64,000 nt of DNA from Candidatus Daviesbacteria bacterium (GTDB lineage: Bacteria > Patescibacteriota > Microgenomatia > Daviesbacterales > UBA10151). The stretch is from contig JACPKL010000010.1 of assembly GCA_016187035.1 (NCBI GenBank), positions 26,014 through 90,013 on the forward strand. Reading direction: 5' to 3'. The notes below the pieces were generated by a model. The model made no database searches. It had not been told where the DNA came from and worked only from the letters and a program-made list of their open reading frames with translations. Positions 27,528 through 51,975 of the stretch are shown here, in pieces. Position 1 is the first letter of the stretch, and each line of letters opens with the position of its first letter. A program made the position numbers and the translations under genes.

Positions 27528-27556
27528 TTTGCTCTAATGATACGTATCATCTTAAT
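27528..27556 (-). promoter_or_regulatory. copy 1 of the 28-nt palindrome-centred motif (no gene attached)
   Basis: tttgctctaATGATACGTATCATcttaat sits in the convergent spacer between acyP and metK. In the other copies an ATG follows the motif; here the corresponding triplet is ATT. Confidence 0.5.
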
Positions 27557-27591
27557 CGAATATCAGAACTCCTAGTAATAACTAGTAAATA

Positions 27592-28707
27592 CTAAACTAT
27601 TCTTTCCCAGGGGAATTCTTCCCTACCGAAGTGACCATAGGAAGCTGTAGGAAGATATATTGGCCTTTGCAAATCTAATCCTTTTAATATCCCCGCAACC
27701 GAAGTATCTAAAATTTTCTCCATAAAAGACAAAATAACTTTATGTGATTTTTTAGCTGTCCCAAAAGTCTCTACATCCTGCATAGTTGGTTTTTTTGCCC
27801 CTATAAAATAAGCAAGTCTTACTTCTGCCCTGTCTGCTAATTTTTGTGCCACAATATTTTTAGCTAAATACCTGGCAGCATATGCACCTGAGCGGTCAAC
27901 TTTTGTTGGGTCCTTTCCTGAAAAAGCGCCTCCTCCTACCCTGGCATATCCTCCATATCCATCCACTACAATTTTTCTGCCGGTAACTCCACAATCAGCA
28001 GCAGGACCGCCATGATGCCAAACCCCTGTCCCGTTAACAATTAAGTCTTTAATATCAATTTTGTATCCAAACTGCTCTAAAACTGGCATCACCACTGCAT
28101 TATAGATATCTTTTTTAACTTTATTTAATTTAACTGACTCTTCATGAGGTATCGCAATTACTACTTGTAAAACCTTTTTTGGCTTACCATTTTCATACTC
28201 TACAGTTATCTGGCTTTTGCCATCTGGCCGAAGGTATGGGACTAACTTTTCCTCCCTGACTTGATCCATTCTTTTGGTTAAAGCGTGGGCTATCATAATA
28301 GCTGTTGGCATCAGTTCTTTAGTTTCCGAACAAGCGTATCCGAATTGCATTCCCTGGTCACCAGCTCCTTTATGATCTACCCCCACTGAAATTTCCGGTG
28401 ATTGTTCATGAATATGCAAATCAATTAAAGATTTATCAGAAAAATTATAGATAGAATCCGTATACCCTAATCTTCTGATTTGCTCTCTGGCAACTTTTTT
28501 AAAATCCACTTTAGCATTTGCTGTAATTTCTCCGGAAATTACCACCCTGTTAAAACCTACCAATGTTTCACAGGCCACATGTCCAAATCTGTCCTGGGTT
28601 AAGACTGCATCTAATATTGCATCAGAAATTTGGTCACAGATTTTATCCGGATGACCTGCGCATACTGATTCAGACGTAAATGTTGTAATACCATTACTTT
28701 TTATCAT
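27592..28707 (-). CDS. metK: S-adenosylmethionine synthetase
   Basis: GHPDKICDQISD, GAGDQG and GGGAFSGKD. The start is moved to Met29 (ATG 28707) because the upstream 84 nt belong to the riboswitch/terminator. Confidence 0.9.
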   Translation of the reverse strand: MIKSNGITTFTSESVCAGHPDKICDQISDAILDAVLTQDRFGHVACETLVGFNRVVISGEITANAKVDFKKVAREQIRRLGYTDSIYNFSDKSLIDLHIHEQSPEISVGVDHKGAGDQGMQFGYACSETKELMPTAIMIAHALTKRMDQVREEKLVPYLRPDGKSQITVEYENGKPKKVLQVVIAIPHEESVKLNKVKKDIYNAVVMPVLEQFGYKIDIKDLIVNGTGVWHHGGPAADCGVTGRKIVVDGYGGYARVGGGAFSGKDPTKVDRSGAYAARYLAKNIVAQKLADRAEVRLAYFIGAKKPTMQDVETFGTAKKSHKVILSFMEKILDTSVAGILKGLDLQRPIYLPTASYGHFGREEFPWERIV

Positions 28708-28711
28708 ATCT

Positions 28712-28850
28712 TCAAAAAAACCTCTCAAAAGAGAGGTTGAAAGTTTCCCTTCGATTACGCTCAGGGCACATTGTCCTCTCGGATCTGGCACCTTAACTTA
28801 AGGTTGCCGGCTCACCTTTTTCAGGCAGCACTCTTAATGCTTGTTAATAG
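28712..28850 (-). ncRNA. SAM riboswitch (SAM-I clan, short-P2 SAM-I/IV-like) with terminator expression platform
   Basis: The minus strand reads ...AAGAGUGCUGCCUGAAAAAGGUGAGCCGGCAACCUUAAGUUAAGGUGCCAGAUCC... It contains the SAM-I/IV core strings GAGUGC, GCCGGCAACC-hairpin-GGUGCCA. These are followed by the terminator AACCUCUCuuuuGAGAGGUU+U7 (plus 28714-28738), which ends 6 nt before the metK ATG. An upstream GAGAGG could form an antiterminator with CCUCUC. Confidence 0.6.
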
Positions 28851-44325: not shown

Positions 44326-44984
44326 TTTTTTAATCCTTCCAAGGCATCTTTTGTAAGCAGCAATCTTGCATGTTTTAATACATCCAAGGCATTTATTAAA
44401 TTGATTGGTAAAACATCAACACCCGGGATGTTCTTAACTGCCCTTGCTAAATTATCCTGTTTTTTATCAGTTACAATTAAAGCGCTCTTAACAGCCAGTT
44501 TTTGCATTAATCTGGCTATTTCTTTAGTTTTTCCAGAGGCCTTATCTGTCCCTGATATTCCCAGAACTTCTTTGCCTTTTGCTTTTGACGAGAGAGCAGA
44601 GAATAAGGCTGCTTTTTTCATTTTCTTTGGTAAATCCAATCTAACTTTTCTACTCTTAGGACCAAAGACAATTCCTCCTCCCACAAAAATCGGCGCCCTG
44701 ATTGCACCGTGTCTAGCCCGCCCTGTTCCTTTTTGTCTATAGATTTTGGCTGTTGAACCAACTACTTCACCCCTAGTTTTAGTTGAACCATTAAGTTGCT
44801 TTTGATTAGTTGTATAAACCCTAATCGCTTGGGATAAAAGTTGTTTATTTACTTTAGCTCCAAAAATGTCTTTTGGTAAAGTTAAAGTAGTAGTACTTTT
44901 TTGACCACTTAAAGTATAAACAGGAATAGATAAATTACTCGTTGCCCGCGTACTTATTGATGATTCTTTCTTAACTCTTGGCAT
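44322..44984 (-). CDS. rplD: 50S ribosomal protein L4
   Basis: The start is trimmed to MPRVKKE (ATG 44984) with the SD GAAGGAGGGGA upstream. The L4 block is RQKGTGRARHGAIRAPIFVGGG. Confidence 0.9.
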   Translation of the reverse strand: MPRVKKESSISTRATSNLSIPVYTLSGQKSTTTLTLPKDIFGAKVNKQLLSQAIRVYTTNQKQLNGSTKTRGEVVGSTAKIYRQKGTGRARHGAIRAPIFVGGGIVFGPKSRKVRLDLPKKMKKAALFSALSSKAKGKEVLGISGTDKASGKTKEIARLMQKLAVKSALIVTDKKQDNLARAVKNIPGVDVLPINLINALDVLKHARLLLTKDALEGLKK

Positions 44985-45780
44985 TTTCCCCTCCTTCGTT
45001 ATTTGGTGTATCAGATGAAATCGGAGTATCAGTAGTTTGCTTGTCCGCCGACTCACTAACTTCTGATTTATCTGAAGCTCCTTCCTCTTCCTCGTCTACT
45101 TTTTCTTCAGGTGGTGGGGTATAACCTTTAACCCGACCAAATTTAGTTACTGTAACCAAACCTCCAATTGGGCCTGGCACAGCACCTTTAACAATTAAAT
45201 ACCCCTTAACTTTATCTATTCCAACAACTTCTAAATTCCTGACGCTGACTGACGCGCTGCCCATATGCCCTGCCATTTTCTTCCCTTTATATACCCTTCC
45301 CGGAGTAGTTCCGGAACCAATTGCCCCTGGAGCTCTTTGTCTATCTGATTGACCGTGAGTCCTTGGTCCACCATGGAATCCATGACGTTTAACAACTCCA
45401 GCAAATCCCCTGCCTTTTGAGACGCCGCTGACTTTAATTGAATCACCGATTGAAAAAACCTGGTCCAGCTTAATCTCTGTTCCAGGCTGTATAGTCCCGA
45501 GCGGACCTGTCCTGAGCGAAGTCGAAGGAGTCGAGGGATCTTCCATAATTTCGATTTCTCTAAACCAGCGAAGGGGTTGTTCAATACCAGCTTTTTTACC
45601 ATGTCCAATTTGAGGTTTTTTAACTGACTTTTTAGTACCAAACCCAAGTTGGACTGAGTTAGAATTAACTTGAGTTACAAAATTAGGACCTATCTGCAAA
45701 GCAGTAGCCCCTACTCTTCTACCCCGAGAGTCATAAGTACTAGTCATATTCTTTTTAATACCAAACAATGTGTTAAACAT
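44971..45780 (-). CDS. rplC: 50S ribosomal protein L3 (with in-frame repeat insertion and acidic C-terminal tail)
   Basis: The start is trimmed to MFNTLFGIKKNMT (ATG 45780), which aligns with the E. coli L3 N-terminus. FAGVVKRHGFHGGPRTHGQSDRQRAPGAIG is present. Confidence 0.9.
   Translation of the reverse strand: MFNTLFGIKKNMTSTYDSRGRRVGATALQIGPNFVTQVNSNSVQLGFGTKKSVKKPQIGHGKKAGIEQPLRWFREIEIMEDPSTPSTSLRTGPLGTIQPGTEIKLDQVFSIGDSIKVSGVSKGRGFAGVVKRHGFHGGPRTHGQSDRQRAPGAIGSGTTPGRVYKGKKMAGHMGSASVSVRNLEVVGIDKVKGYLIVKGAVPGPIGGLVTVTKFGRVKGYTPPPEEKVDEEEEGASDKSEVSESADKQTTDTPISSDTPNNEGGENAKS
45494..45540 (-). repeat. GC-rich mini-repeat inserted in frame in rplC
   Basis: The plus strand gtcccgagcggacctgtcctgagcgaagtcgaaggagtcgagggatc is read on the minus strand as [16 protein letters not shown]. 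The same core, with unit expansions, lies in fusA at 49314-49393. Confidence 0.8.
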
Positions 45781-45814
45781 AAAAAAGAGTGACCTGCCAA
45801 AGGCATAGTCACTC
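45781..45814 (-). terminator. terminator/attenuator-like hairpin plus U6 immediately upstream of the rplC ATG
   Basis: The minus strand reads GAGTGAC-ta-TGCC-ttt-GGCA-g-GTCACTC-TTTTTT-ATG. Confidence 0.55.
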
Positions 45815-45830
45815 AGTAATTGTGCCTTCA

Positions 45831-45867
45831 ATTGTCGTATCCTTCGACTTTGCTCAGGACGCACAAT
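45831..45867. repeat. inverted partial copy of the rplC/fusA repeat core, flanked by a short inverted repeat, in the rpsJ-rplC spacer
   Basis: attgtcg-tatccttcgactttgctcaggacg-cacaat. The core ccttcgactTtgctcaggac matches the reverse complement of the coding copies (ccttcgactTcgctcaggac) apart from a T/C difference. Confidence 0.6.
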
Positions 45868-45955
45868 CTACTGAAATTTTTATTAATCATTAATTAACCA
45901 CTTGAAATGGTCATGTAGGGGAATTGTAACAAAGCTAGAGGTTAAATGCAAGCTG

Positions 45956-47824: not shown

Positions 47825-49999
47825 TTAGCGCTCAACCCGGCCGGTAAAGCCTGAGGACTCGACAATTTTTTGAGTAATATTTTGTGGAACCGGTTCATAA
47901 TGGTCTGCTTCCATATAATAAGTAGCCCTGCCCTGAGACATACTCCTGATAGCTGTAGCATATCCATGCATTTCAGCCAGAGGCACTAAGGCCAATACCA
48001 CCCTGGCATTTCCCCTTGACTCAGATGATAAAATCTGAGCTCTTTTTGAGGATAAATCACCAATAATCTCACCTAAAAATTCATCGGGAGTGGTTACTTC
48101 CACTTTCATTATTGGCTCAAGTAAAATCATATCTGCAATTTTGGCTGCCTCAGACAAGCCTAAAGAGGCTGCAATTTTAAAAGCTATCTCAGAGGAATCA
48201 ACATCATGAAAAGAACCGTCATAAACAGTCACTTTAATATCTGTAACAGGGAAGCCTGCTAAAATCCCTGTATCTTCTTTTTCAATCACTCCTTTTTCAA
48301 TTGGCGGTATAAACTCTCTTGGAATGGCTCCGCCAACCACCTCTGAAACAAATTCCCTGCCTTGCCCTCTTGGCAATGGTTCAATCTTCAAAAGACAATG
48401 TCCATATTGACCCCTGCCACCTGTCTGCCTGATATATTTACCCTCTCCTTCAGCATATTTAGTAATAGTCTCTTTATAAGCTACCTGCGGCTGGCCAACA
48501 TTAGCATCAACTTTAAACTCTCTTTTCATTCTATCTACTAAAATTTCCAGTTGTAATTCTCCCATGCCGGCAATAATAGTTTGGCCTGTTTCAGCATCAG
48601 ACTTAACCCTGAAAGTAGGATCTTCCTCAGCCAGTCTTTGTAAAGACAATCCCAGTCTCTCCTGATCTGATTTAGTTTTGGGTTCAATAGCCAAAGAAAT
48701 GACCGGATCTGGAAAAGTGATAGACTCTAAAATAATTGGCGAAGTTTCATCGCATAAAGTATCTCCGGTAATAGTATCTTTAAGCCCAACAGCTGCCACA
48801 ATTTCTCCGGCAAAAGCCTCTTCAATTTCTTCCCTGTCATTAGCATGCATTAAAAGCAGCCTGCCTACCCGTTCTTTAATTTGTTTGGTAGAGTTATAAA
48901 CATAAGAACCGCTCTTTAAAGTTCCTGAGTAAACTCTAATATAAGTTAATTTCCCCACATGAGGATCAACCTGAATTTTAAAAGCCAAAGCAGATAAAGA
49001 AGCTTTAGGATCTGTTTTCTCAATATCCTGGGGAGAAGGCAGATATTCCACCACACAATCTAACATTTTTTGGACACCTTTATTTCTTAGAGATGACCCT
49101 GCTAAAACTGGAACAATCTTACTCCCAATGACAGCTCTTCTTAAAGCAAGTTTCAACTCTTCAACGGACATATCTTGCCCGCCCAAGTATTTTTCCATTA
49201 AGATATCATCAGTACCGGCAATTTCTTCAACTAATTTTTCCCTGGCTGCTTTAACTTCTTCCGCCATATCAGCAGGAATTTCTACTTCATTAAATTTAGC
49301 GCCGGTATCACTTGTCCCGAGCGGACCTGTCCTGAGCGGACCTGTCCTGAGCGAAGTCGAAGGAGTCGAAGGAGTCGAAGGAGCCGAGGGATCACCTTCC
49401 CAAATATAGGCTTTTTCAGTCAGTAAATCTACCACACCTTTAAAATCATTTTCCCGTCCAATGGGTAAATTGTAGGCAATGGCATTGGCCCCTAACCTAT
49501 CCCTGGCAGACTGGATTGTAGCCTGAAAATCTGCACCCACCACATCCATTTTATTGGAAAAAGCAATCAAAGGCACATTGTATTTGTTAGCCTGCCTCCA
49601 GACAGTCTCTGTTTGAGACTGCACTCCTGAGGAAGAATCCAACACAATTACCGCACCATCTAATACTCTCAAAGACCTTTCCACCTCAGCAGTAAAATCT
49701 ACATGTCCGGGAGTATCAATTAAATTAATTCTATTTTCCAAAGACTCAAAAAGACCCTGTTTAACTGTCCAAAAGGCAGTAATTGCAGCAGATACAATGG
49801 TGATACCACGTTCCCTTTCCTGCTCCATCCAGTCAGTAGTAGTAGTTCCCTCGTCAATATCACCAATTTTATAAGTTCTGCCCGTATAAAAAAGAATTCT
49901 TTCAGTGGTGGTGGTCTTCCCTGCATCAATGTGAGCGATTATCCCAATGTTTCTAATCCTATCTAAGGGGAAATCTCTGTTAGTCTTTTGTAAGCCCAT
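47825..49999 (-). CDS. fusA: elongation factor G (with in-frame repeat insertion in the G' region)
   Basis: [20 protein letters not shown] and NKMD, with domains II-V present. 724 aa. Confidence 0.95.
49314..49393 (-). repeat. expanded copy of the GC-rich mini-repeat inserted in frame in fusA
   Basis: The plus strand is gtcccga-(gcggacctgtcctga)x2-gcgaa-(gtcgaagga)x3-gccgagggatc. It is read on the minus strand as [27 protein letters not shown]. Confidence 0.8.
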
Positions 50000-50314: not shown

Positions 50315-50581
50315 TTACTGGTAATGATCATTAATATCTACAACTTCTATCTCACCTACCTCAATCATACCAAATATGGCTCTATATTTGTGATCGATTC
50401 TAAATGAATATAGATTAAGATCTTTGGGTTCTAGTTTTTCTGTATTAAGAGAGGGATGGGAAATATTTTCTTCAAGTAATTTAATTTGTTTGGTGTATTT
50501 TTCACTTAAATTGCGCTTGGTCAAATATTTAGCTAGCCTTACTTTAAGAGGTTTTATCTTCATAAAAAGAAGAGTCTTCAA
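50315..50581 (-). CDS. RelE/ParE-superfamily type II toxin
   Basis: 88 aa. NISHPSLNTEKLEPKDLNLYSFRIDHKYRAIFGMIEVGEIEVVDINDHY fits the RelE/YafQ-like pattern (HPSL..+KL.....YS.RI...YRAIF......I.V..I..H). It overlaps the upstream RHH gene. An alternative start is Met7 at 50563. Confidence 0.65.
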   Translation of the reverse strand: MKTLLFMKIKPLKVRLAKYLTKRNLSEKYTKQIKLLEENISHPSLNTEKLEPKDLNLYSFRIDHKYRAIFGMIEVGEIEVVDINDHYQ

Positions 50582-50819
50582 GTCCTCGTATTATACTTTT
50601 AATGAACTTTTGGTTATATTTACCTGTTTTGAGCAGATCTGTTTCAACCTCTTCTAAGGGCTTTCTTACAAAGGATCTAAACTCAATTTCTCCGCTGGAG
50701 AAATATCTTCTTAGTAAACTTCTGATAAATTCAGAACGGGTTGCGAAACCCCGCCTTTTTGTCTCAGAATCAACGTTCTTTGCTATTTGATCTGGAAGAG
50801 AAATAGTGACGGTTGTCAT
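50544..50819 (-). CDS. ribbon-helix-helix (CopG/ParD-like) antitoxin
   Basis: Trimmed to MTTVTISLPDQIAKNVDSETKRRGFATRSEFIRSLLRRYF (ATG 50819), which has the classic RHH beta-strand plus two helices. Confidence 0.65.
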   Translation of the reverse strand: MTTVTISLPDQIAKNVDSETKRRGFATRSEFIRSLLRRYFSSGEIEFRSFVRKPLEEVETDLLKTGKYNQKFIKSIIRGLEDSSFYEDKTS

Positions 50820-50828
50820 ATTACTAAT

Positions 50829-50857
50829 ATTTAACAATATTTGTGAATTTTTGTCAA
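50829..50857 (-). promoter_or_regulatory. candidate promoter of the TA pair
   Basis: The minus strand reads TTGACA-17 nt-TTAAAT-attagtaat-ATG(50819). Confidence 0.45.
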
Positions 50858-50878
50858 GGTTTGGATAGATTCCAAAAG

Positions 50879-51409
50879 TCAACCCAACTGATAACTCCAT
50901 CCTGGTTGCCACTTAAATAGGGTTGTTGTCAAGGTTTCTAATGATACTCCTTTTATCCAATGCTCTAATCCAAATCGAGTGGCACGATGCCCAATAATCA
51001 TTACCTTTTTATCCTCATAATTTATCTTTAAATCATCCAAGAAATCCTTTATTCTTTTAGATGACTGTTCATAACTCTCACCATTCGGGAATGGTTCTGT
51101 TATATAATTAATCAGTTGGGGTTCCACTTCACTACTTGGATGCCTGGTTAAATCACCGTAATCACATTCCCTAAGTCTTGGATCTTTAATAATTGGAAAC
51201 TTTTTTCCAAAAGCAATTTCTGCGGTTTTGTATGACCTTTGTAAATCAGAGCAAAAGATAGTATCGAACTTTTGATCTTTATATCTTCTACCTAATTGTT
51301 TCGCTTGTTGCTCACCAAGTGATGAAAGCGTTATATCATTGTGTCCAGATGATAAGTAATTCTCATTATCCAAACTAGTAGCGTGGGTTTCAAAAATGAT
51401 TGTTATCAT
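50879..51409 (-). CDS. histidine phosphatase superfamily protein (PGAM-like) with non-canonical first motif
   Basis: 176 aa. SDLQRSYKTAEI and IIGHRATR fit the family. The N-terminal motif reads FETHATSLDN where RHGxT..N is expected (Arg to Thr, Gly to Ala). Confidence 0.6.
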   Translation of the reverse strand: MITIIFETHATSLDNENYLSSGHNDITLSSLGEQQAKQLGRRYKDQKFDTIFCSDLQRSYKTAEIAFGKKFPIIKDPRLRECDYGDLTRHPSSEVEPQLINYITEPFPNGESYEQSSKRIKDFLDDLKINYEDKKVMIIGHRATRFGLEHWIKGVSLETLTTTLFKWQPGWSYQLG

Positions 51410-51412
51410 ATA

Positions 51413-51441
51413 CTTGCTCTAATGATTCGTATCATCTTAAT
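51413..51441 (-). promoter_or_regulatory. copy 2 of the 28-nt palindrome-centred motif, 12 nt upstream of the phosphatase ATG
   Basis: cttgctctaATGATtCGTATCATcttaat, with one central mismatch in the palindrome. Confidence 0.55.
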
Positions 51442-51446
51442 AGATG

Positions 51447-51893
51447 CTAAAAAGCCTTTTTGTCTTTGGATTTTTTCTCAAGTTCTTTTTTTAAATATCT
51501 CCATGCCCCACTACCTTTTCCTCTGGTTGCTGGAGTTATTAATACTTGAGCAGTTTTGTTAAGAATCTCTTTTAATTTTTCATCTCTTAAAATTCTGCTT
51601 ACAGCCTTTTTATAACCATTACTCCCATATTTTATAGCATTATTAACCACAGCCACCGTTTGGAAACTGACATGCAAAACTTTATTTATTTCCCGATATT
51701 CATATCCTTGAGTTAAAAGGAAAGCGATAGCTAATCTTTTAGTTAGCATTATTCGTTCTGTAGGGGTAAGTAAATCACTAACAATTTCATCTGCATCTTG
51801 AGAATTTTTAATCCCAATTAAAGTCTTCGTAAATATTTCCCAACATCTGTCATAAACATCTTTGGAGATTGGATATTTTGAAACTTGGGTCAT
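51447..51893 (-). CDS. YerC/YecD-like TrpR-family DNA-binding protein
   Basis: 148 aa. LLTPTERIMLTKRLAIAFLLTQGYEYREINKVLHVSFQTVAVVNN matches the TrpR-related YerC pattern. Confidence 0.6.
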   Translation of the reverse strand: MTQVSKYPISKDVYDRCWEIFTKTLIGIKNSQDADEIVSDLLTPTERIMLTKRLAIAFLLTQGYEYREINKVLHVSFQTVAVVNNAIKYGSNGYKKAVSRILRDEKLKEILNKTAQVLITPATRGKGSGAWRYLKKELEKKSKDKKAF

Positions 51894-51921
51894 TTGCTTT
51901 GATGATACGTATCATCTTAAT
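51893..51921 (-). promoter_or_regulatory. copy 3 of the 28-nt palindrome-centred motif, abutting the yerC-like start codon
   Basis: caTTTGCTTTGATGATACGTATCATCTTAAT. On the minus strand, the TATCAT of the palindrome lies 8 nt upstream of the ATG. Confidence 0.55.
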
Positions 51922-51975
51922 AATAGTAAGAAAAATATACTATGTCAATAATTTTGAGTATTTTGATATTGGAGT

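Follow-up and report, generated by a model that had tools for sequence, protein, structure and literature searches.

An in-frame GC-rich mini-repeat shared by the genes for ribosomal protein L3 and elongation factor G in a Candidatus Daviesbacteria genome

In a stretch of 64,000 nucleotides from a Candidatus Daviesbacteria genome (contig JACPKL010000010.1; hereafter referred to as the window), the genes for the ribosomal protein L3 (rplC, uL3) and elongation factor G (fusA, EF-G) carry, in frame, the same composite GC-rich mini-repeat, which belongs to a family of short elements also found in intergenic DNA of many phyla. We regard it as most probable (roughly 70%) that these are copies of a non-autonomous mini-repeat similar in behavior to the repetitive extragenic palindromic (REP) sequences and the Rickettsia palindromic elements (RPEs), filtered into loops that tolerate them, homogenized by gene conversion and resized by slippage. 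On the basis of the comparisons presented below, the inserts are best regarded as repeat DNA tolerated in essential genes and not as a result of convergent protein evolution. The two host genes and their inserts are located as follows:

44971-45780, minus strand: rplC (uL3, 269 aa), with the start taken at the ATG at 45780 (open reading frame (ORF) call)
45496-45537, minus strand: composite mini-repeat in frame in rplC; 14 extra codons, i.e. 42 nt, relative to the insert-free orthologue from locus L123
47825-49999, minus strand: fusA (EF-G, 724 aa), the second host gene (ORF call, alignments with EF-G orthologues and structures)
49310-49390, minus strand: composite mini-repeat in frame in fusA; 81 nt more than in insert-free orthologues, encoding 27 residues

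The window exhibits ~35% G+C, and its str, S10 and spc ribosomal protein clusters are all encoded on the minus strand. Stretches with at least 63% G+C are few; 45494-45540 is one of them, and the fusA block is the other conspicuous one. The rplC gene is contained in a longer ORF (44971-45864, minus strand), and its product, a member of PF00297, is 100% identical to a protein named 50S ribosomal protein L3 from Candidatus Daviesbacteria and matches uL3 chains from the PDB at E ~1e-40. The 47-mer at 45494-45540, with which the preliminary description of this DNA began, is present inside the rplC ORF on the minus strand exactly as quoted there and is translated into 16 residues in the rplC frame. 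The sense strand of the insert proper reads CCC TCG ACT CCT TCG ACT TCG CTC AGG ACA GGT CCG CTC GGG and can be parsed into an 18-nt short form to which a 9-nt unit (TCCTTCGAC) and a 15-nt unit (AGGACAGGTCCGCTC) are added. With 14 encoded residues, it is 24 nt longer than the insert in the short-form orthologues. It comes after RWFRE, in a loop which the solved bacterial uL3 chains lack or keep short; in alignments with these chains, the insert stays unaligned past the REI motif. In the T. thermophilus protein, this loop corresponds to residues ~84-90. An AlphaFold2 model of L3 (34-sequence alignment) has a mean pLDDT of 47.5, which is too poor for judging solvent exposure. As a separate feature of the same protein, the C-terminal tail of uL3 (44971-45130, minus strand) is acidic and of low complexity over ~50 residues (PPPEEKVDEEEEG...), overlaps the start of rplD, and is kept as a feature in the Daviesbacteria homologues.

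The fusA block spans 49314-49393 and is composed of the same modules as in L3, with the 15-nt unit present twice and the 9-nt unit four times. On the plus strand, the modules are arranged as GTCCCGAGCGGACCT / GTCCTGAGCGAAGTCGAAGGA / GTCGAGGGA / TC in L3 and as GTCCCGAGCGGACCT / GTCCTGAGCGGACCT / GTCCTGAGCGAAGTCGAAGGA / GTCGAAGGA / GTCGAAGGA / GCCGAGGGA / TC in fusA, and the longest exact block common to both genes comprises 35 nt. In fusA, Tandem Repeats Finder counts the 15-nt unit 2.7 times and the 9-nt unit 4.1 times; in rplC, it counts the 9-nt unit 2.1 times, and the 15-nt unit can be read only once. Both blocks are translated in the same reading frame and are bracketed on the sense strand by a 5' GAT and a 3' AC. 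The shared modules, frame and bracket agree with the earlier suggestion that both genes carry the same element. However, the "single-base difference" then reported between the two blocks holds only if differing unit numbers are allowed: when the extra sub-units are skipped, one base differs (GTCGAGGGATC in L3 vs GCCGAGGGATC in fusA), whereas the best ungapped register (49329-49373 in fusA) contains two mismatches in 45 nt (96% identity). There is no other 47-mer in the window within three mismatches of the one from L3, nor was any match found in shuffled sequences, while the 20-nt core GTCCTGAGCGAAGTCGAAGG has four matches in the window at up to three mismatches, compared to 0.00 expected. The alignment with EF-G from T. 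thermophilus (1dar) is interrupted precisely where the insert lies, between residues 191 and 190/192, a region that we take to belong to the G' subdomain. The EF-G from the window possesses a further insertion in the G domain relative to the T. thermophilus protein, the nine residues VKQGLFESL (residues ~78-86, near 49740-49770), which bears no resemblance to the repeat.

Comparison with relatives reveals a series of alleles at a single codon in each gene. For L3, we aligned 120 close homologues and classified the segment that separates RWFRE from PGTEIKL, where insert-free, short and composite loops occur at the same position. The loop is short and free of the insert, as in VKSSEENLQPG, in 41 proteins, which agrees with the loop after the W-F-R segment originally proposed as the insertion site; it contains the PST(S/T)LGT short form in 25, a partial short-form motif (PST or PSS without LGT) in three, and the composite or long form as in the window in two, and it has other lengths in the remaining 49. 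DNA sequences were compared for eleven orthologous loci. The insert is missing from L123; in L121, L125, L127 and L190, the DNA reads gat/aat CCC TCG ACT TCG CTC GGG act, where CCCTCGACTTCGCTCGGG is the short form; L124 and L189 exhibit the short form with one substitution each (ACG); and L122 has the composite architecture with four substitutions, three of them from G/C to A/T. Two closely related L3 proteins (P0003 and P0065) differ by a clean presence or absence of the insert.

In EF-G, about 100 of 120 orthologues are insert-free and read IWEGDETGAKF, 11 contain a short peptide of the LGT type, DPS(T/A)xLGTS(D/E), among them the four proteins most similar to that of the window (85-87% identity), and five contain PSTxSGQ-type peptides; the composite occurs in the window only. 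The DNA reads gat CCCTCGACTCCGCTCGGG acaagt gat in L191 and gat CCTTCGACAGGCTCAGGACAAAGT gaa in L193. The L193 insert represents another variant of the family; it occupies the codon at which L191 has its own and equals it in length, each adding 24 nt, and the swap of variants is accompanied by a compensating one-base shift. The EF-G gene from L122 carries a decayed copy of the L193 type. Only the genome studied here has the composite in both L3 and EF-G. All insert lengths are multiples of three and lack stop codons (+18 and +42 in L3, +24 and +81 in EF-G), and their flanks align to the orthologues and to the PDB chains. In genomes with both genes on one contig, occupancy of the L3 site is not coupled to that of the EF-G site, and comparison of the junctions with the empty sites revealed no consistent target-site duplication in either gene.

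Element insertion, as initially proposed, is in agreement with the observation that most orthologues of both proteins are empty or contain a shorter form at exactly the same codon. These comparisons suggest a refinement, however: neither insertion is new to this genome, as short forms are already present at both sites in relatives. The trait peculiar to this lineage is that both copies changed in parallel to the composite, which points to gene conversion between copies or re-colonization of a resident copy, and not to two fresh insertions. In L126 (7255-7330) and in the proteins P0002, P0020, P0033, P0102 and P0116, the same L3 loop harbors a different insert, GEGESVKGE(V/E)..., which in L126 is accompanied by a duplication of KPGTE and by a direct repeat of 10 nt (AAGGGTGAAG); judging from these alignments, the L3 loop is probably a general hot spot of insertions and deletions.

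Six L3 genes that possess the short form are 69-76% identical at the nucleotide level, with a G+C content at third codon positions of 0.24-0.37 and saturated synonymous sites. Among columns with a shared residue, the codon is identical in 6 of 6 within the insert compared to 21 of 125 (17%) elsewhere (p ~2e-5). The six frozen codons (CCC, TCG, ACT, CTC, GGG and ACT) are mostly rare and G/C-ending. The short form is therefore maintained as DNA rather than drifting. Since a neutral old insert would drift towards A/T, as the copies in L122 did, the live copies are either re-templated from other copies, by gene conversion or by repeated site-specific insertion, or constrained as nucleic acid. The replacement of one variant by another at one EF-G codon favors re-templating, as does the parallel upgrade of both copies in the window, whose close relatives retain short forms.

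The core of the element can be described as CCY-TCGACTTCGCTC-RGG, i.e. an inverted repeat of 3-5 bp around a conserved 12-nt center, and the fuller element as (G)YCCY-TCGACTTCGCTC-RGGAC, with variants of the type GAGC-N3-4-TCGA. Scanning of one genome per species (596 Gb) with the 17-mer TCGACTTCGCTCRGGAC returned at least 120 loci with at least 126 distinct instances, to be read against ~550 chance matches estimated for a 17-mer in this amount of DNA, and the match list carries no total count or taxonomic distribution. Because of the chance matches, the list alone proves nothing; it is the flanks, unconstrained by the query, that indicate that nearly all of these sequences represent the same element. 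Among the matches listed, C is found at position -3 in 123 of 126 and at position -2 in 115 of 126, while the base at -1 and the R on the other side form T-A in 71 cases, C-G in 47, T-G in five and other combinations in three. As there are only two stem states (CCC/GGG and CCT/AGG), this association may reflect two lineages of the element as well as base pairing. According to the titles of the matches listed, the hosts include Proteobacteria (many of them sphingomonads), Acidobacteria, Planctomycetes, Verrucomicrobia, Cyanobacteria, Flavobacteria, Omnitrophota, Patescibacteria and others. A 20-mer was found in 39 viral contigs, compared to none for the reversed control, and the loose pattern CCY-GAG-N3-8-CGA-RGG has 287 matches in 1.5 Mb of loci, compared to 12 in shuffled sequences; the variants of the center in these loci include CTTGT, CGGAGT, CGTAGT and CCTGT. 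The composite itself (TCGAC TCCTTCGAC TTCGCTC AGGACAGGTCCGCTC) recurs in the unrelated metagenome contigs L168, L174 and L185, which indicates that it is a standing variant of the family and was not built in this genome.

In genomes of up to 50% G+C, most copies are intergenic, and in relatives of the window they are also found after rpsG; in other phyla, many copies occupy the apex of longer, host-specific hairpins. Copies in coding regions are not restricted to the frame used in L3 and EF-G. In a Patescibacteria contig (DATCJB010000015.1; locus L018, 3184-3203), leucyl-tRNA synthetase contains an in-frame copy in another frame and orientation (KSEGPERSRGKET), translated as WPDKSEGPERSRGKETVDW, which includes PERSR, and two phage ORFs read the DNA of the motif as CPERSRR and VLSEVEG. 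The presence of the core in intergenic DNA of many phyla, the fixation of rare GC-ending codons and the use of other frames elsewhere all support the original argument against convergence of the proteins.

Searches in databases and literature did not connect the motif with any described element. Rfam 15 covariance scans, with both gathering and E-value thresholds, gave no match at or near the inserts or the copies of the motif; BLAST against plasmids gave matches of 19-29 nt and no annotated repeat feature; and a full-text literature search with diagnostic motif strings retrieved unrelated primers only. Hence, in the literature searched, we could not find a description of this core, which is identical across phyla. 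A search of 5.8 billion protein sequences with the insert peptides of five open frames (with X linkers) gave no match at E<=10, these peptides being too short and of too low complexity to reach significance. The minimum free energy of folding predicted for the short form as DNA is -1.8 kcal/mol, and all forms, as RNA or DNA and on both strands, fold no better than shuffled sequences (positive z-scores); with such a weak fold, a short inverted repeat flanking a conserved asymmetric center is a more fitting description of the element than a strong hairpin. It is conceivable that the CCYGAGC...TCGARGG strand forms tandem G-A/A-G pairs beside the stem, which are outside the reach of the energy model. 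An in-frame palindrome of another widespread family (GTCATTGCGA...TCGCAATGAC), ~100 nt in length, was encountered in the N-terminal extension that uL4 has in some Daviesbacteria (L190, 7790-7900; also rplD from L127 and L124), where it is joined with a variant of the present motif (CCTTCGACAAGCTCAGGG) and yields a peptide of the form ...VIATPSKTRGKQS...LRQAQGKLPRNDK; uL4 from the window lacks it.

Apart from the two coding copies, the window contains one clear and one doubtful non-coding relative of the motif, both in regions predicted to form structured RNA:

45840-45860, minus strand: non-coding copy in the opposite orientation (GTCCTGAGCAAAGTCGAAGGA in the transcript), one mismatch in 20, at the apex of hairpin P1 of the rplC leader
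45781-45873, minus strand: conserved rplC leader, comprising P1 followed by a terminator-like GAGTGA...TCACTC and a run of T
28748-28767, minus strand: weak relative of the motif (GCCCTGAGCGTAATCGAAGG), three mismatches, in the last hairpin of a SAM-I/IV-like aptamer; its membership in the family is uncertain

RNAalifold predicts 24 base pairs in the rplC leader, five of them with compensatory changes. In the window, the motif takes the place of the P1 loop, which comprises 4-6 nt in other Daviesbacteria, while in L122 and L193 a copy of the motif is located in the loop of the terminator-like hairpin instead, where L191 has a variant. The occurrence of the motif in different hairpins in different lineages indicates independent landings. 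Upstream of metK (27592-28704 region), the SAM-I/IV-like aptamer (28732-28845, minus strand) and a subsequent intrinsic terminator are found; the aptamer reaches 35.2 bits against RF01725, below the gathering score of 41.1, and its last hairpin displays the motif-like apex GCCCTGAGCGTAATCGAAGGG. As regards the leader itself, this region between rpsJ and rplC is conserved in Daviesbacteria (the window, L122, L123, L124, L126, L127 and L189-L193) and contains a promoter-like TTGCAT...TTAAAAT; it has no match in Rfam and may represent an undescribed ribosomal protein leader with a terminator or attenuator.

We propose the following scenario for the origin of these alleles. Copies of the mini-repeat would survive only where they do little harm, i.e. 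at the apices of hairpins in structured RNAs and in variable loops of essential proteins, and among those that land in genes only copies with a length divisible by three and without stop codons would remain. Such a survivorship filter accounts for both the RNA-apex and the protein-loop locations. In the wider clade, a short form of 18-24 nt was already present in the L3 and EF-G loops, and both copies in this genome would have been subsequently converted to one composite variant. The copying could proceed by gene conversion between copies, and RecA, RecX, RecJ and RuvX are encoded in the window; a Pfam scan of 40 ORFs from the window outside the core ribosomal protein cluster (64 kb of the genome) detected no Y1/RAYT or other transposase. 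Replication slippage would then have set the numbers of the 9-nt and 15-nt units, two and one in L3 and four and two in EF-G, respectively. The ribosome would simply read through the inserts, adding 14 residues to L3 and 27 to EF-G, in both cases rich in Pro, Ser, Thr and Gly, presumably disordered and probably neutral for the host protein.

Several observations weigh against this scenario. Neither a copying event nor a copying enzyme was seen, and there is no clear target-site duplication or terminal inverted repeat. The fold, no better than in shuffled sequences, leaves a mechanism driven by structure alone unsupported. Vertically inherited selfish DNA alone does not readily account for a motif that is nearly identical across phyla, and a short form perfectly preserved in six L3 genes could instead point to a functional sequence. 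In L3, the codons after the short form are almost always the I-Q pair ata cag, which would rather favor a single old insertion followed by constraint, and the "patchy" distribution of the insert relies on a poorly resolved neighbor-joining tree of L3 (195 columns). Finally, as 64 kb were inspected, the copy number and the homogeneity within the genome rest on three or four copies.

It is also conceivable that the core CCY-TCGACTTCGCTC-RGG, with its GAGC-N3-4-TCGA variants, is an undescribed and nearly universal nucleic acid module rather than junk bound to a lineage, either as a footprint of a copying mechanism that employs a widespread host enzyme or as a site for a conserved factor. We put this forward only tentatively. 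If true, it would explain why the same 20 nt occur in Proteobacteria, Acidobacteria, Planctomycetes, Cyanobacteria, Bacteroidota, the Candidate Phyla Radiation (CPR) and viral contigs, why the motif is retained to the letter in an essential gene despite strong AT pressure, and why variants overwrite each other at the same codon.

A related explanation, which we find unlikely, is that the motif is a functional signal, in DNA or RNA, for a conserved cellular factor, and that the copy in rplC is under purifying selection for a role in, e.g., expression, processing, recombination or chromosome biology, the peptide being a by-product. The codons of the short form frozen in six diverged L3 genes and the near-identity of the 12-nt center across phyla and phages would be expected of such a signal, as would the fact that the rplC leader and the metK riboswitch, both regulatory leaders, contain copies. 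The CCYGAGC...TCGARGG strand is the one present in the transcript in ~16 of 20 usable non-coding cases, which is suggestive only, as the number is small and the cases are not all independent. On the other hand, both orientations are found, and the coding copies place in the mRNAs of L3 and EF-G the strand opposite to that of the leader copies. About one third of the L3 homologues and most EF-G orthologues do without the motif, several copies are plainly decaying, and different variants replace each other at one site. No Rfam family matches and the predicted folding is weak, and tandem arrays with variable numbers of units are atypical of a defined binding site.

The hypothesis that the Pro/Ser/Thr/Gly-rich extensions of uL3 and EF-G are adaptive and were selected as peptides, e.g. 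as surface features of ribosome and factor specific to the lineage, with the similarity of their DNA due to shared ancestry of the coding block, could explain why both hosts are translation proteins, why both loops were occupied repeatedly within the clade and why the lengths are always multiples of three. However, it explains neither the fixation of synonymous sites on rare codons nor the occurrence of the same DNA between genes and in frames that give unrelated peptides; moreover, occupancy of the two sites is not coupled and close L3 proteins differ by the clean presence or absence of the insert, and hence we consider it very improbable. Even less credible is independent expansion of low-complexity sequence by slippage in each gene, with a coincidental likeness of the blocks: the 9- and 15-nt tandem arrays in both blocks fit it, but the blocks share 35 nt exactly and an identical module order, the chance expectation is 0, the 15-nt unit and the junctions are absent from the short form and underivable by duplication alone, the composite recurs in unrelated metagenome contigs, and the shared non-repetitive junctions already contradict it. 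That the identity of the blocks is an artefact of a collapsed or chimeric repeat, as might be feared for a contig from a metagenome-assembled genome with short GC-rich repeats that can confuse assemblers, can be practically dismissed, as the copies differ in unit number and sit in unique in-frame flanks, L122, an independent metagenome-assembled genome, exhibits the composite architecture in L3 in a decayed form, and short forms have turned up at both sites in many assemblies, which stem from different projects.

If we return to the interpretation of the inserts as tolerated repeat DNA, the closest precedent is provided by RPEs, which are described as elements of ~100-150 bp with clear palindromic arms, found in Rickettsia only (Ogata et al. 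2000, 2002, as summarized in PMC10969869). To the extent that they are characterized in that summary, both types of elements are dispersed, non-autonomous, and located in intergenic DNA as well as in frame in unrelated housekeeping genes, where they are translated and leave the host protein intact. Indeed, the present element is dispersed in rplC, fusA, the rplC leader, relatives and other phyla, and in the genes it keeps the frame and leaves the protein otherwise unchanged. It does not, however, have the size and extended palindromic arms of RPEs: it comprises 18-81 nt with an inverted repeat of 3-5 bp and internal 9- and 15-nt units. It also occurs in a CPR bacterium, and its core is common to many phyla and phages.

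REPs are imperfect palindromes of 20-40 bp; in those with the CGTC tag, an 8-9 bp stem beginning with A/T pairs encloses a loop of 4-5 nt, a CCA tail is present, and no dedicated transposase is known according to the text of Di Nocera et al. 2013 (PMC3733652). As far as that text describes them, they share with our element the small size, the GC-richness, the presence in several phyla, the frequent location downstream of ORFs, the occasional nesting in palindromes and the occasional intragenic location with addition of residues. Furthermore, YGTC precedes many copies of the motif: the GA strand has CGTC ahead of the leader copy, TGTC ahead of the fusA copy and its inner units and AGTC ahead of the L3 copy, and across phyla the bases at -5 and -4 are mostly G and T or C among the matches listed; this tag overlaps the stem and is thus not unpaired, in contrast to the conserved tetranucleotide (GTAG, or CGTC/TGTC) at one end of REPs. 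In contrast to REPs, the stem has 3-6 GC pairs around a conserved center of 11-12 nt, there is no CCA tail, and the hairpin is no better than in shuffled sequences. The motif was not found in the text and supplements of PMC3733652, in which the consensus sequences are presented in figures. Given the different geometry of stem and loop, we did not assign the element to the CGTC-tagged REPs.

The GC clusters of yeast mitochondria, optional in-frame variants of which occur in the ribosomal protein gene var1 of an AT-rich genome with AG/TAG target duplications (PMC8811140), resemble our element in being GC-rich mini-elements with in-frame inserts in ribosomal proteins, size polymorphism, presence/absence alleles, gene conversion and composite mergers. 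They differ in the mitochondrial location, the sequences, the better palindromes and the target duplications, no comparable duplication being evident here. Bacterial miniature inverted-repeat transposable elements are likewise non-autonomous and dispersed and sometimes form in-frame fusions (PMC10969869); the present element lacks inverted termini of the transposon type beyond the arms of 3-5 bp as well as a clear target-site duplication, and is far smaller. Byps of Magnusiomyces mitochondria, which are cited in PMC8811140 as inserts similar to GC clusters in coding genes that are skipped by the ribosome, are also described there as GC-rich inserts within protein genes of an AT-rich genome. 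Nonetheless, byps need not keep the frame, while every insert found here does and has no stop codon, which fits ordinary read-through and makes bypass unlikely; we therefore rejected ribosomal bypass. In summary, the behavior of the element matches that of RPEs, REPs and GC clusters, but its membership in any of these named families is not supported.

What is new in this case is the allele series at two codons, the short form frozen at synonymous sites and the independent landings in hairpins of the rplC leader. If our interpretation is correct, even the most streamlined bacteria of the CPR carry active or recently active repeat DNA in core genes of translation, and some of the length differences among CPR ribosomal proteins and translation factors would represent insertions of repeats rather than adaptations, which bears on phylogenies, annotation and the understanding of lineage-specific extensions in CPR ribosome structures. 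A motif of ~20 nt frozen in an essential gene may provide a handle on how REP-like elements without a transposase spread and on the distinction between junk and signal, with the empty, short, variant, composite and decayed alleles at two codons serving as a natural test series.

Several other features were noted in the window and in the corresponding loci of relatives. In L127, L189, L190, L191 and L193, the spacer between rpsJ and rplC has gained small genes, namely a GIY-YIG nuclease, DUF3276, DUF2283 and a sigma70_r4 protein, and in relatives the tuf-fusA spacer contains toxin-antitoxin pairs and other small ORFs; judging from these gene orders, the operon junctions appear to be hot spots of insertion. 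In the window, a gene for a ribbon-helix-helix (CopG) protein overlaps an 88-aa ORF with no Pfam match (50315-50912, minus strand) between rpsL/rpsG and fusA, and the two probably form a toxin-antitoxin pair inside the str operon region. A 31-nt repeat with the 14-nt palindrome ATGATACGTATCAT occurs three times (27529-27559, 51414-51444 and 51894-51924). Two of these repeats flank a gene of the Trp_repressor family (51447-51893), and from this arrangement the set looks like the operators of a regulator of that family.

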